The notes: generated by a model from the letters alone, not told the origin. Counted from the first letter of the stretch, positions 30,806 through 37,441 are shown. The stretch: DNA of 64,000 bases from an uncultured Pseudomonadota bacterium (GCA_902763155.1 CACWQS010000001.1:30878-94877); one strand, 5' to 3'. Numbers and translations: made by a program.

Positions 30806-33800
30806 TTATGTATAACTGTTACCACGATTACTCATTCCGCCGGAACGAGCACCAATATCGGCTGATGTTTTTCCGTAAGGTGTTTGTGAATTTTTGTAAG
30901 CATCAGCGGCGGCTTGTCGATATTGTTCCACTTCTTGCGGTTTCATATTTGTTGTTTTGTCTTCTGTATCAACAAACATACCGCTCAAAGTGCCATTTTC
31001 AACCTTTAAGATTATGCTGTTGCCTTCAGGGTATCTGATTTGCCAACCGTTTTCGGCTTTAGTAACAACAGTTCCTTGGTATTGACCGGATTCAACCAAG
31101 CGTGTATCTCCACCGGTCAGGCCAAATTCGGTAGCACGTTCGGTTGCTGCTATTATGTGAAGATTAGTCAAATCGATACCATCGGTTGGAGTAGGAGTTT
31201 CAACATTATTACCGGTATTTTCGGTCAACTCAGGATGTTGCTCCAAATAGGTGCCGGCAACTTTATAATACACATCAATGTCTTCTTCTTTGCTGATATT
31301 ATTTTGAATTGTTTTCAAGAAAATTTTTGCTTCATTTGGATTCATTTCATGAGGTGTTTCATCTCCATTAGAAATCAGTAAATGAGCTTGATTATCAGCA
31401 TCAATAACCATTACTTTTGTAACATCTAAATCAGTAATGGAAAAACCGTTTTCAGCTCTACTCAAGGAATAGAAACTACGTGTATTCATTACATTGTTAC
31501 CAACTTGAGAATGAGTGTTGTATGATTGTTCCTGAATTGCTGCAGGACGAACTAAGCCATATTTTTGCTCCAAAACTTCAGCGTTATATGGACGAGAGTT
31601 TAAATATGATTGTTCTTCAATATTTTTAATAAAATCGTCATAACTGCTACCTGATGAAGATGATACTCCGTTATCAGCCTTCAGTTTATTTAAATTATCA
31701 AAAAGTGTAGCTCTTCTATTTCCTTCAATATTTGTTACTTTTGTTTCGTTATTTTGATTGTTGATAATGTTATCATCCTTCGGGTGTATAGCCTGATCGA
31801 TATCTCCGTATAATTTAAATACTTGATCTTTCGCCGGATTATCATTTTGCATCAGATAATCAGTAGTAAGGCGATTGTAATAATCGAGTTGTTGCGGAGT
31901 CATAAGTTTTTCGCCGGTAGCAGTATGAATAGAACCAAATGGTTTACCATCTGCATCAACACGAATATTCCAGGTTTGAGTTACTTCTCCATCTTTGGTT
32001 TCAACGCCGAAAAAGCCGTTTTCATAAACGCTGATTGCGGTATCTCCGCTTGTGTGTGTATACAGCGCTTCACCGGTTAAGCCATTATCTGCTGCTGTTG
32101 GGAAGTATGTACTTTCATCTTTCTGCGCTTCTATTTCCTCAGTAGTTTTCTGTGTTTCGGCAACAGATTTTTCAGGCTCTGTTTCTATTCTGCCAGTGTT
32201 ATCATCGGATGATAGTTCAGGTCCTTCATTTTTAAGTATATTTTCATCAACTGGATTTTCGGCAGAGGCAATAATTTGTTTAATGCGCATGACTTCATCT
32301 TCTGAAGCATTAGTAAAATCACCGATTACTGAGGCAGAAGAACTGGAATTATCAGCAAATGTATCGCTTTCTTTTTCTATATCCGGAACTTCAAATTTTA
32401 CACTTTCTTTAATGCTAGCAATTTCCGCCTCTTGTCTTTCAGCTTCTATTTGTTCGGCAGACTTTGCTTGAACGTCACGTTTCTCTGAATTATTATGATG
32501 TTGTTGTTCAGTATTATTGTTGGTTTCCTGCTGATTTTCCTGACTGGTGCTGCTTTCTGTATCTATATCTTCACTAACTGTTGTCTGGGAGGACTGTTGA
32601 TCATTTTGATTTAGTGAGTCCGTAATTTCATTAGGTAAAGTTATATGTTCAGCATAATTTTCAACATCTTTGTTTGCTTGTTCTATAATTTCATTTGAGA
32701 TATTACTTGCTTCCGGTTGTCCGGCTTCTATAGTGTTAACATTTTCTCCTGTATCTACATTTTCATTAGATGCATTTGCATTATTAGTTCCAAGAAATAC
32801 AGTGGTTGCAGTTGTCATAAAACGTGTAAACGCTACCCCGTAGTTGCCTTTTTTTGCTTCTTCAAGTGCTGAGTTTGCCCCCATCATTATAGCACCGCTG
32901 AGACGAGAACCTTTACTGATGTTTGCCCAGTTGAAATGAGCTCCGTTTAATGCATCTGCACCGATACCGACAGCAGTTCCTGTTGCAACAAGTGCAGTTC
33001 CGAATACTTGAACTTTATTATTTTTACAGTAGTTCCAAAAGTTATTTTCTTCATTTTGTTTCTTATATTCTTTATATCCGTTATAAACGGATTTTACCGC
33101 CTTAGCACTCATTGCTGCGCAATATACAGTCATCACTACCGGAGCTGTTTTTGCAGCAACAGCACCAACCAAAAGACTGGTAGCAATACCCTTTCCGTAT
33201 TGATATAAAGTGTTTAATACCGGATGATCTTTGGCCAATTTTTCATTAAATTGTTTATTGCGTTCATATAATTTGGAGGCAAAGGCACCGACCTTTGTTT
33301 TTGAAGTAAATTTATTCCATAAATTTTTGATATCTTCATGGACTTGCGAACATCTTTCTTTGACAACCGAAAAGGCAACAGAATCATAAATGGTAAATTT
33401 ATGTTTTGTTTCATCTTTGTTTTGCCAAAATGCAACAAAATCTTTAATTTTTTCGGTTAAATTACGAGATGTATCTCTGTTACCGATTTCAGTTATTTCA
33501 TCTAAGGCTCTTTTTTGAAAATCTTCCAAACCTTGTGCAGTCAGTTGGCCGTTTTCGTCTTTTTCTAAACCTTCAAGTAACCTGTCATTGTTTTCTTTTT
33601 GGGCTTGGCTGAGCATCAAGGTAATAACGGACTCTTCCATGTGATCAAGTACTTTTTCTTGAATTTTTTCTTTGAGATCATCTTGAAAGATAGGTTGACC
33701 TAATTCATTTAAGAAATTGCCTTGTCCATCATATTCATTTTCATTTAGAATTTCGTTTATAGCGTTTTGACGAGCTAATTCCAGAAGCTCGTATTTCAAA

Positions 33801-36800: not shown

Positions 36801-37441
36801 TGTTTCCCATCAAAATATTGCTTGCCGATTTGACTGATTTTTTGTTCAAATGCTGCATTTTCTTCTTGATTATATGAGCTGTAATTGTGCATCCGTAATA
36901 TATGCATTTGAATATTATAAACTTCATCAGGGGATAAATCTAATTCTTCTCCATTGTTAAATTTGGCTTTGGCATGGTTAAATAGTTGTTCTTCGCGAGT
37001 TATTGTCGGTTCTTCTTGAGATTCAGCTTCTACCGTCAGCGGAAAGTGTTCGGCAACATAGTTTTCAACGGTGTGGTCGGCGAGGGATTCGTGCATGCGT
37101 TCGAGATATTTGCGTAACAATTGTAATTCGTCATCAGAGAGTTCGAGTTGTTCGCCGCTATCAAGCAAACCTTTGGCGCGTTTGTAAAGCTCGGCACCCA
37201 TTGCCATTTCGCTTTTCGGTTGTTGTTCTTGTGGTTTTGCTTCTTTCAGTTTGCGCTCAACCATATATTCTTCCAAAAATTCAAGTTGTTCTTCATATCT
37301 GTATGCTTGGTCTTCTTGAATTTTCTGCGTTTCATCATAAAAAGCCAAAACGTCTTTATCTTCCATACCATTAAGATATTTTTCCAAATCTTCTGCCGAT
37401 TTTGCGTTTTTTAATACCGGAATTGCTGTGTTTTTTGCCAT
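30806..37441 (-). CDS. Giant (2,211 aa) acidic, low-complexity/coiled-coil protein with a central Gly/Ala-rich hydrophobic region; function unknown (candidate secreted effector)
   Basis: A single uninterrupted 6.6-kb ORF. A GGGGAG ribosome-binding site lies 7 nt before the ATG. It has E/Q/P-rich linkers (PEPEPEPE), an internal ~45-aa tandem repeat near the N-terminus, and no signal peptide. Confidence 0.7.
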   Translation of the reverse strand: MAKNTAIPVLKNAKSAEDLEKYLNGMEDKDVLAFYDETQKIQEDQAYRYEEQLEFLEEYMVERKLKEAKPQEQQPKSEMAMGAELYKRAKGLLDSGEQLELSDDELQLLRKYLERMHESLADHTVENYVAEHFPLTVEAESQEEPTITREEQLFNHAKAKFNNGEELDLSPDEVYNIQMHILRMHNYSSYNQEENAAFEQKISQIGKQYFDGKHPDLIEKGVSTDIDDIYYLHMYMERFGIHNTLDFHHTVDKQIREQQGEDAPTLSGKIRYDILRNVDWEDEEEKEKNLDFFRGFSSRERKPTLDYAVMQLQVAGDGEDREEIQNLINILSDQKTQEQQTVENQETAENVVKEPVAEATAPAPQAEQTEELQPEPVRESPTQENPTIERKPRTPQQLLEIAMGPNRLQSIEDAMTTQELISLHKHIGNLRPKRDVKLSKKEANDLHIRSSIDRIVLHTLGVKLITPPYQELKDIEKSGEQFLLRDVFRHYQQEDKSNELHVEKALEALNDERHKRGLENLEYRFEYLGMPKNKRPNYQQFLFDKFYEMPTEEVLESIGISNLYTLRKNMEKYLASHEADDNKKTFLNLQINQAINSHRATEKQEKKRRQQEANLPIIEAVYNDIKEHALEGNMTEVLNILQRLQPNQLGLVVQMEQYAAEQVKNEQNEEVKAKLEEIDGHISARISELREERNKEKATEQEDKTPETVAETTEQENKATAEPEQNAEPATAEEPIIQEPEPVVQESTQEQHQQSEEDRIKALYNHIAEVGWHEIPYEEQLAISNRDLLMLVKYAKIQKENARGAENYDSISSTYIDLYMQGIIRLEKSDYENNQFITLGSSGKEEDLLFLKDYIDTVFEIYPTGKNNDEYLAFVAAVNTKRAEKGLSTSLEDEFNKLDHANDQESVVQNAEPATQEAEPIAEIETEPQVQPNIEQENTTGGTIIIGPASPDTPIAEPVPESEPIIIGGSEPEPEPEPENRVDLYEDITPDNIYDLVFEEPEVIKQALDEYTTVSLHAFRSYLEKHISEGHINAQAPQLETFYNIAVDKIIKEPKFGNPDTLNDQQKEEVKTLLEIYSVDFTGKPLDNPVYGILMERYDAQPREATPQEQIIPTPEATPTAEPQSNAEENILNAADEDTYSMLEQIAKDVFDGYGHFYEAGFMDQPRNRMVRLNRFFENVDIEHDKEWRNIGDTLRQLSNRDTYQKYDGYTAEVLKYELLELARQNAINEILNENEYDGQGNFLNELGQPIFQDDLKEKIQEKVLDHMEESVITLMLSQAQKENNDRLLEGLEKDENGQLTAQGLEDFQKRALDEITEIGNRDTSRNLTEKIKDFVAFWQNKDETKHKFTIYDSVAFSVVKERCSQVHEDIKNLWNKFTSKTKVGAFASKLYERNKQFNEKLAKDHPVLNTLYQYGKGIATSLLVGAVAAKTAPVVMTVYCAAMSAKAVKSVYNGYKEYKKQNEENNFWNYCKNNKVQVFGTALVATGTAVGIGADALNGAHFNWANISKGSRLSGAIMMGANSALEEAKKGNYGVAFTRFMTTATTVFLGTNNANASNENVDTGENVNTIEAGQPEASNISNEIIEQANKDVENYAEHITLPNEITDSLNQNDQQSSQTTVSEDIDTESSTSQENQQETNNNTEQQHHNNSEKRDVQAKSAEQIEAERQEAEIASIKESVKFEVPDIEKESDTFADNSSSSASVIGDFTNASEDEVMRIKQIIASAENPVDENILKNEGPELSSDDNTGRIETEPEKSVAETQKTTEEIEAQKDESTYFPTAADNGLTGEALYTHTSGDTAISVYENGFFGVETKDGEVTQTWNIRVDADGKPFGSIHTATGEKLMTPQQLDYYNRLTTDYLMQNDNPAKDQVFKLYGDIDQAIHPKDDNIINNQNNETKVTNIEGNRRATLFDNLNKLKADNGVSSSSGSSYDDFIKNIEEQSYLNSRPYNAEVLEQKYGLVRPAAIQEQSYNTHSQVGNNVMNTRSFYSLSRAENGFSITDLDVTKVMVIDADNQAHLLISNGDETPHEMNPNEAKIFLKTIQNNISKEEDIDVYYKVAGTYLEQHPELTENTGNNVETPTPTDGIDLTNLHIIAATERATEFGLTGGDTRLVESGQYQGTVVTKAENGWQIRYPEGNSIILKVENGTLSGMFVDTEDKTTNMKPQEVEQYRQAAADAYKNSQTPYGKTSADIGARSGGMSNRGNSYT

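Follow-up and report, generated by a model that had tools for sequence, protein, structure and literature searches.

A giant acidic protein of uncultured gut Alphaproteobacteria with a conserved Gly/Ala-rich module and predicted Polo-box-like C-terminal modules: a possible membrane-docked scaffold

The stretch of DNA analysed here, 64,000 nucleotides from an uncultured Pseudomonadota bacterium (GCA_902763155.1, CACWQS010000001.1:30878-94877; hereafter the window), carries on its minus strand a gene for a protein of 2,211 residues, referred to below as the giant gene and the giant protein. The other genes of the window are ordinary chromosomal ones, such as adhE, glyA, gltX, parC/gyrA, recO, recJ, radA, mdh, folA, thyA, gpsA, fadL, uvrB, lepB, rnc, era, ftsY and fabF. 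We found that the giant gene is real and under purifying selection. As judged by sequence searches, its product founds a protein family that has no annotation so far, occurs only in a narrow set of uncultured Alphaproteobacteria from gut and rumen, and is defined by a basic, Gly/Ala-rich hydrophobic module. The reading we prefer, at a probability of roughly 0.4, is that of a modular scaffold which docks at the membrane and is retained by the cell that makes it.

The gene, its conserved module and its arms

The coding sequence is a single unbroken frame of 2,211 codons with an ATG start, in agreement with the uninterrupted 6.6-kb open reading frame (ORF) of the original prediction, which had been made from the sequence alone. 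The MAKN... start is kept in the homologs P0003, P0009 and P0011. Upstream lie a promoter-like element and a Shine-Dalgarno-like sequence (Table 1), and the former is the top-scoring sigma-70-like site within 30600..37700. Because the region as a whole contains no more sites of this kind than chance would give, what is suggestive is limited to the position and score of this one. The GC content at third codon positions is 0.275, compared with 0.33-0.49 in 16 neighbouring genes. This could be a mark of foreign origin, of drift towards AT in a gene under weak constraint, or of codon bias linked to expression, the last being compatible with the low values also seen in mdh and adhE. The gene was found intact in about 10 alleles. 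Two 412-aa (amino acid) fragments from the P0003 cluster, P0015 and P0016 (L087:1-3897), had suggested a disrupted gene and proved to be assembly artefacts: a 100-N scaffold gap falls inside a QEEAARQA tandem repeat and a contig end inside a QEPEPVA repeat, and the frame is otherwise continuous, leaving the ORF intact in the relatives. A pseudogene or spurious ORF was ruled out by conservation together with ratios of nonsynonymous to synonymous substitution (dN/dS) of 0.13-0.29.

The protein has a mass of 251 kDa, an isoelectric point of 4.6 and a net charge of -184, with 12.3% Glu and just 3 Cys among its 2,211 residues. It is thus as strongly acidic as had been described, and all of the peptides quoted in that description are present (EPEPEPEPE at aa 971, TEPQVQPNIEQENTT at aa 926). 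Inspection by eye revealed no hydrophobic segment at the N-terminus, as expected from the predicted lack of a signal peptide, and a regular-expression search found no GGxGxD motif anywhere in the protein. Pfam and NCBIfam gave no domain at E<=1; scans of the protein and its homologs against Pfam, NCBIfam, PHROGs and PADLOC gave nothing above threshold, and a PDB sequence search gave no match. These searches bear out the earlier statement that the protein has no enzymatic domain, RTX nonapeptides or Ig-like/cadherin repeats, and they returned no adhesin or S-layer homology. The long coiled coils that had been proposed were not reproduced. A crude heptad scan, which is a rough test, gave only aa 92-126, and the longest helix in an AlphaFold model of aa 984-1560, one of two models made (the other being aa 1790-2211), has 37 residues.

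The family-defining module opens with KLAK-x-H, followed by a first hydrophobic stretch, a Lys/Tyr/Trp/Phe-rich connector with N-F-W, and two or three more Gly/Ala-rich helices, which have a conserved K-K-G-N turn. An invariant proline (P1434) interrupts the first stretch, and alignment A5 has nine invariant columns, among them K1417, P1434, K1447, A1448, F1468 and G1492. Ala accounts for 15-19% of the residues in the module, Gly for 10-15% and Lys for 8-10%; in the four long homologs this is the only net-positive region, at +5 to +8 per 100 residues, flanked by arms at -6 to -10 (-8 to -10 in the window protein). "Gly/Ala-rich hydrophobic hairpin", the term used in the original prediction, is a fair description of it. 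The hydrophobic peptides listed there exist, but at aa 1418-1449, 1479-1503 and 1536-1551 rather than 1480-1600, a placement about 60 residues too far along; nor are they amphipathic, as their hydrophobic moments (muH) are only about 0.1-0.3 (0.12-0.27). The best 19-residue Kyte-Doolittle window in the module is 1.67, and the stretches, which contain Lys, Thr and Ser, have position-free Hessa sums of +4.6 to +8 kcal/mol, compared with about -2.5 for the helices of LacY used as a control, so that they are much less hydrophobic than Sec-type transmembrane helices. AlphaFold predicts five helices here, with predicted local distance difference test (pLDDT) scores of only 33-55. On these properties the module looks like a membrane-interacting element and not a classical transmembrane bundle. 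Given the proline split and the Lys/Tyr/Trp-rich connector, a hairpin or interfacial anchor fits better than a membrane-spanning helix of the classical kind.

A topological variant of the scaffold reading, rather than a separate function, would have the protein span the envelope: the N-terminal 1,400 residues would be cytoplasmic, the module would cross the inner membrane an odd number of times, and the Asn/Ser/Thr-rich linker and three beta modules that follow would be periplasmic, contacting partners in the wall or outer membrane. Such a layout would be analogous to that of PodJ, FimV/HubP or TolA. The five predicted helices would suit such an arrangement. Lys and Arg are plentiful ahead of the first stretch and from there to the second, with none beyond the last, a pattern that fits the positive-inside rule with the C-terminus outside. 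Compared with the N-terminal arm, the C-terminal arm is consistently poorer in Leu, Arg and Lys in four homologs (and, in the window protein, richer in Ser, Thr and Asn), and the post-module linker of P0003, made of QEEAARQA repeats, is like domain II of TolA in composition. However, that match is sub-threshold and compositional (30.2 bits to TIGR02794, cut-off 59.45), with no match at all for the window protein. The last module helix, which contains an Arg and has a position-free Hessa sum of +5.9 kcal/mol, would make a poor signal-anchor, and no peptidoglycan-binding, LysM, TPR or OmpA-like domain was found with Pfam and NCBIfam. We regard an envelope-spanning topology as doubtful.

The C-terminal arm holds three modules of about 58 aa that were absent from the earlier description and share the pattern A-E-N-G-[FW] ... 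G ... G ... M-x-P-x-E. A hidden Markov model (HMM) built from eight copies recovers copies outside its training set (P0011, E 6e-14 and 2e-15; P0006, E 3e-9), and every long homolog has 3-5 copies. Modules 1 and 3 are modelled as a 5-6-strand antiparallel meander followed by a helix. When module 3 was compared with the PDB by Foldseek, the top 50 matches were all Polo-box domains (best E 2.8e-3, probability 0.94), and two methods both gave Polo boxes as the best fold match for the C-terminal modules. Sequence identity to Polo boxes is 8-14%, and neither the Pfam POLO_box profile (PF00659, at E<=1) nor PDB sequences gave a match. The modules thus appear Polo-box-like in their predicted fold, and membership of the Polo-box family is not claimed. 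As for the last 30 residues, their net charge is +3 for the window protein and ranges from +1 to +2 for P0003, P0009 and P0011, in proteins whose overall charges are -118 to -184; the extreme C-terminus is not conserved in the alignments. The C-terminal 600 or so residues, described earlier as N/S/T/G-rich and less charged, are indeed rich in Asn, Ser and Thr but still strongly acidic.

A large, acidic, Cys-poor protein with no N-terminal signal peptide and with repeated C-terminal beta modules might also be a secreted surface or matrix protein of the adhesin type, leaving the cell by type I export through a C-terminal signal. RTX and other type I giant adhesins are marked by GGxGxD repeats, Ig-like or cadherin arrays and a nearby type I operon, none of which was found for the giant protein; other adhesin repeats were likewise not found. 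The ABC transporter, membrane-fusion protein and TolC genes of such an operon are missing from the window, and the ABC exporter gene that adjoins P0011 comes without a membrane-fusion protein gene. With a protein that is mostly helical and an extreme C-terminus that varies, we consider this the least convincing of the explanations, and a very improbable one.

At the other end of the protein, aa 1-135 form the best-conserved stretch between the window and P0003 species (54-62% identity), and the alignments to P0009 and P0011 start only at window aa ~321. Self-BLAST aligned aa 54-117 with aa 118-185 at 31% identity (E 1.4e-6). The N-terminal tandem repeat that had been reported is therefore present, with cores at aa 96 and 164, but its period is about 68 aa instead of about 45. 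An HMM of this unit recovers the two copies of the window protein as well as those of P0003; elsewhere it found weak extra copies only, scoring 3.3-3.9 compared with <=1.5 in shuffled sequences. The idea of about seven copies across the N-terminal 1,100 residues was dropped, as the HMM backs only the two N-terminal ones. Further along, two acidic Pro/Glu/Gln/Thr-rich linkers (aa 676-983) stand on either side of an extra helical unit (aa ~760-900). The central region that follows (aa 984-1400) is modelled as all helical with pLDDT 60-87 and helices of at most 37 residues, and Foldseek of the central helical model against the PDB gave nothing significant, only generic unrelated helical matches (best E 0.085).

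Variation falls in the linkers. At the position of aa 709-978, P0003 has 12 copies of a 21-bp repeat encoding QEPEPVA (L002:12017-12271, Tandem Repeats Finder), and at that of aa 1553-1790 it has about 9 copies of a 24-bp repeat encoding QEEAARQA (L002:14188-14410), both perfect-looking at the DNA level. The window allele is non-repetitive at both positions, being acidic or Asn/Ser/Thr-rich. Linker positions are kept between alleles, and their sequence and repeat content are wholly different. Among near-identical alleles, length differences occur in the linkers, with indels at aa 709-978; allele lengths also differ at aa 1553-1790.

Table 1. Features of the giant gene and its product in window coordinates
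Feature	Coordinates	Strand	Evidence or remark
Coding sequence, 2,211-aa protein	30806..37441 (stop codon included)	-	ORF and translation; homolog alignment
Promoter-like TTGACA-17 nt-TATACT	37497..37525	-	56 nt upstream of ATG; 11/12 consensus positions
Shine-Dalgarno-like GGGGAG	37449..37454	-	7 nt before ATG; read from sequence
aa 1-330, N-terminal helical extension	36452..37441	-	Restricted to the window/P0003 clade
aa 54-185, ~65-aa helical unit duplicated in tandem	36887..37282	-	Core ...G-E-x-L-x-L-S-x-D-E-L..L..YL-x-RMH
aa 321-613, helical region with homology to the N-terminal end of P0009 and P0011	35603..36481	-	BLASTP E 6e-16 vs P0009 aa 3-300
aa 709-978, segment absent from same-species mosaic allele P0002	34508..35317	-	Alignment A1
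aa 984-1400, conserved all-helical central region	33242..34492	-	Common to P0009 and P0011, partly P0010
aa 1401-1552, basic Gly/Ala-rich hydrophobic module, ~150 aa	32786..33241	-	Only region conserved in all homologs, including 593-aa P0010
aa 1553-1790, long hydrophobic-poor Asn/Ser/Thr/Gln/Glu-rich linker	32072..32785	-	Composition scans
Module 1, aa 1803-1863, beta-meander then helix	31853..32035	-	Module HMM; AlphaFold pLDDT 68-79 over model residues 1-75, six strands and one helix
Module 2, aa 1992-2049, pattern A-E-N-G-F ... M-x-P-x-E	31295..31468	-	Module HMM; strands and helix predicted, pLDDT 35-54
Module 3, aa 2125-2182, K-A-E-N-G-W-Q..., best conserved, predicted Polo-box-like fold	30896..31069	-	Module HMM; pLDDT 74-89
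aa 2183-2211, unstructured tail, net positive	30809..30895	-	pLDDT <30

Relatives, gene neighbourhood and rapid change

An index of 5.8 billion proteins returned only three proteins, and eight relatives came from a profile of aa 984-2183 run exhaustively with HMMER against 1.84 billion cluster representatives. These were a mosaic allele from the window's own species (P0002), five fragments (P0004 to P0008), a distant full-length homolog of 1,588 aa (P0009, HMMER E 2e-28), and P0010 (HMMER E 8e-4, BLASTP E 3e-7), whose similarity is limited to the hydrophobic module and some of the helical region ahead of it. A follow-up search with P0009 added P0011, a protein of 1,766 aa from a wolf-gut metagenome. 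All relatives with a traceable source come from gut or rumen metagenomes. None was found in viral contigs, phage records or plasmid records, and an origin from a phage or mobile element was rejected on these grounds; searches of the genome collection with the giant protein and of metagenome contigs also found nothing.

The host was placed by a search of one genome per species anchored on the adjacent ThyA. The nearest matches (77-93% identity) were uncultured alphaproteobacterial metagenome-assembled genomes from rumen, human (Hadza) gut and goat rumen, in line with the host-associated organism that had been predicted; in none of the six closest species does a homolog of the giant gene stand beside thyA. 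The HPr kinase gene at 22149-22664 (+) encodes the C-terminal domain only, at 157 aa for the gene as called. A short HPr kinase of this type is characteristic of Alphaproteobacteria and agrees with the ThyA-based placement, and an anaerobic alphaproteobacterium fits the gene content, namely this kinase, desulfoferrodoxin and AdhE.

In the window species, the mosaic strain and the P0003 species, the giant gene occupies the same slot, between thyA-folA and a divergent two-gene pair, while P0009 and P0011 sit in two other housekeeping neighbourhoods, giving three chromosomal contexts in all. The divergent pair (37595-39012, +) had been read as MORN-repeat and patatin genes. The second is a patatin-like phospholipase with DUF6363, as stated; the first is a 190-aa signal-peptide protein with only a weak, sub-threshold match to MORN_2. 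Its end overlaps the start of the patatin gene by 4 bp, the pair is conserved beside the giant gene in loci L002 and L003, and together they look like a two-gene operon. The short homolog P0010 (L086:481-2262) is found on another alphaproteobacterial contig, directly upstream of flgF-flgG-flgA-flgH-flaF (L086:2388-6348), a hint that the core module may work in a cell-envelope or flagellar context. Genes for secretion, chaperones, immunity or mobile elements do not recur beside the giant gene or its homologs; the window contains no secretion-system, chaperone or immunity gene, the 26-kb loci contain no type III or IV secretion genes, and no small membrane-protein gene adjoins the giant gene.

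When the window genome and that of P0003 (locus L002) were compared gene by gene, the giant gene, under purifying selection, proved to be by far the fastest-changing in its neighbourhood. For the neighbouring genes, synonymous divergence (dS) is 1.1-2.9 (most 1.1-1.6), nonsynonymous divergence (dN) 0.013-0.20 and dN/dS 0.009-0.11. For the best-conserved parts of the giant gene, dS is saturated, dN is 0.27-0.65 and dN/dS 0.23-0.26. Nonsynonymous change is thus about 1.3-50 times that of the neighbours, and the window protein and P0003 are 34% identical overall. The strain at L003 belongs to the window species (neighbouring genes 97-100% identical) and carries the mosaic allele. At aa 1-700 and 1790-2211 this allele has 92-100% identity with the window protein, dS being 0.04-0.08, dN 0.006-0.010 and dN/dS 0.13-0.15 for the N- and C-terminal thirds, and its aa 984-1600 are 82-100% identical to P0003 (coordinates compared: L003:9972-15647, L002:10001-15712, window 30806-37441). 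For this central cassette, L003 and L002 differ by dS 0.13, dN 0.038 and dN/dS 0.29. A dS about one tenth of the genome-wide value shows a recent move between species of a cassette that comprises the helical core and the hydrophobic module, the central third of the L003 gene having been imported from another species. A second same-species allele, P0012, aligns to the window protein without indels at 96% identity, and the differences cluster at the cassette borders (aa 1001-1100 and 1701-1800). Exchange of the central cassette alone, between species whose housekeeping genes are synonymously saturated, singles it out as the part on which ecological pressure acts.

Such exchange, together with the fastest evolution in the neighbourhood and a host-associated organism, would be in keeping with the large secreted or translocated effector that the original prediction proposed. 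An effector or toxin of this kind would be exported through a system that needs no signal peptide (type I, III, IV or VI), and its Gly/Ala-rich helices would insert as a hairpin into the membrane of a host, protist or competitor. The missing signal peptide, the 3 Cys residues and the net-positive C-terminal tail of an otherwise extremely acidic sequence would agree with this, as would Hessa sums too weak for co-translational insertion; the pore domains of colicins and diphtheria toxin, which pass from a soluble to a membrane state, also have helices too weak to insert co-translationally. However, nothing we tested shows secretion or translocation, and no secretion machinery, chaperone or immunity gene adjoins the gene in any of four contexts. 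The searches gave no toxin, enzyme or known translocation domain. dN/dS was below 0.3 everywhere tested, with no sign of positive selection; the net-basic module is conserved and the variable parts are linkers. The hosts have the appearance of free-living anaerobes of the gut, with ordinary housekeeping content, and a short homolog lies in a cluster of flagellar genes. Of the intracellular lifestyle offered as an option earlier we saw no sign, and all the loci belong to housekeeping chromosome. Acidic arms, a single basic hydrophobic module and protein-binding modules fit a scaffold kept in the cell at least as well as an effector, and we judge export as an effector to be on the unlikely side.

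A membrane-docked scaffold and its known counterparts

The scaffold reading is in our view the most economical mechanism in light of the missing signal peptide, the conserved basic module, the acidic modular arms, the variable spacers, the protein-binding type of fold and the housekeeping context. The protein, having no signal peptide, would be made in the cytoplasm, and the module at aa 1401-1552 would attach it to the anionic inner membrane or embed it there shallowly. The acidic arms would be the working parts, with several helical domains in the N-terminal arm and three Polo-box-like modules in the C-terminal arm; in eukaryotes, Polo boxes bind proteins and mediate dimerisation. The long linkers, hydrophobic-poor and rich in Pro/Glu/Gln or Asn/Ser/Thr, would act as freely variable spacers. 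The C-terminal arm could be either cytoplasmic or periplasmic, an odd number of predicted helices (five) and the lack of Lys/Arg after the last one favouring the second possibility.

Several observations weigh against a scaffold of this kind. AlphaFold confidence in the module is low. The weak Gly/Ala-rich helices, the few cysteines and the basic tail would also fit an exported protein that inserts post-translationally. Recent exchange of a cassette between species and very fast amino-acid change are commoner in proteins exposed to phages, hosts or competitors than in internal scaffolds.

Among known systems, the working principle proposed here would most resemble that of the large acidic membrane-anchored hubs FimV/HubP of Gammaproteobacteria and PodJ and TipN of Caulobacter. 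These are very large, acidic and fast-evolving proteins with one membrane-anchoring region, variable spacers and several protein-binding parts, encoded among housekeeping genes. The giant protein shares their size, acidity, fast evolution, spacers and housekeeping setting, with a single putative anchor region and candidate protein-binding parts, without sequence similarity and without any of their defining sequence features. FimV/HubP have a LysM domain and a FimV C-terminal motif, neither of which was matched in Pfam or NCBIfam; as regards these defining traits, an acidic, repeat-rich composition alone is shared. PodJ has a cytoplasmic coiled-coil region and periplasmic TPR and peptidoglycan-binding domains; neither domain was found in the giant protein, which also has no clear single transmembrane helix and, in the crude scan, heptads only at aa 92-126. 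Its putative anchor is a weakly hydrophobic, basic, multi-helix element in mid-protein, whereas that of the hub proteins is a single clear transmembrane helix.

Other resemblances are partial. The identity of 8-14% to Polo-box domains (those of PLK1 (PBD), PLK4 (PB3 and cryptic polo box) and ZYG-1), the unmatched POLO_box profile and the absence of a kinase from the giant protein set it apart from that family, and the likeness is likely convergence on a simple fold. Colicin-type pore domains, the diphtheria-toxin T domain and the chlamydial Inc proteins are made without a signal peptide and use Ala/Gly-rich hydrophobic helices as hairpins. Only the pairing of Gly/Ala-rich helices is shared with the giant protein, in which no Colicin or Inc-type Pfam domain was found and which has no adjacent immunity gene or secretion system. 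The bilobed domains of Inc proteins, about 40-60 strongly hydrophobic residues long, also appear more hydrophobic than its paired stretches, with their best Kyte-Doolittle value of 1.67 and Hessa sums of at least +4.6. The QEEAARQA repeat of P0003 resembles TolA domain II below threshold and the C-terminal domain of TolA is absent; in the same way, the (EP)n-like runs of the window protein and P0003 recall the spacer of TonB, whose C-terminal domain is absent. The literature on the host lineage and on bacterial Polo boxes gave nothing useful.

We conclude that the giant protein represents a new unannotated family, with a combination of parts that is unprecedented in a giant modular protein that appears to be membrane-associated. 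A more far-reaching version of the scaffold reading would make it a new cell-organising protein. The proline-kinked basic hairpin would then be an undescribed inner-membrane anchor, possibly sensing curvature or the pole, that positions an acidic scaffold with genuine prokaryotic Polo-box-like docking modules; an ancestral role of the module in flagellar or pole assembly is hinted at by P0010 beside flgFGAH-flaF. We think this speculative and rather unlikely, and the data would be equally compatible with gut Alphaproteobacteria having a new class of effector that is translocated and inserts into membranes. The host bacteria are widespread and essentially uncharacterised, and the giant gene, among their largest, combines a near-consensus promoter-like site with no match in any domain library tried. 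If the protein is a scaffold, a new membrane-anchoring module and a bacterial Polo-box-like fold would join the few known bacterial hub proteins. If it is an effector, it would represent an unrecognised route by which commensals interact with host cells, protists or competitors.

Other features of the window

A few further observations were made elsewhere in the window. A gene at 16115-16669 (-) encodes a homolog of the lipid-A palmitoyltransferase PagP (Pfam E 1e-51), an enzyme best known from enterobacteria and a few pathogens. Towards the far end, two adjacent ORFs of 553 and 386 aa with a GC content of 0.35-0.39 follow a YceG-like gene (59885-62706, +) and have no Pfam match at E<=1e-5. 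The same holds for the ORFs at 9578-10540, 20757-21779, 42893-43702, 49720-50331 and 56147-56824. Finally, an rve-type integrase gene of an insertion sequence element (63260-63940, -) adjoins a tRNA gene at 63118-63191, and the two may mark the edge of a mobile element at the window end.

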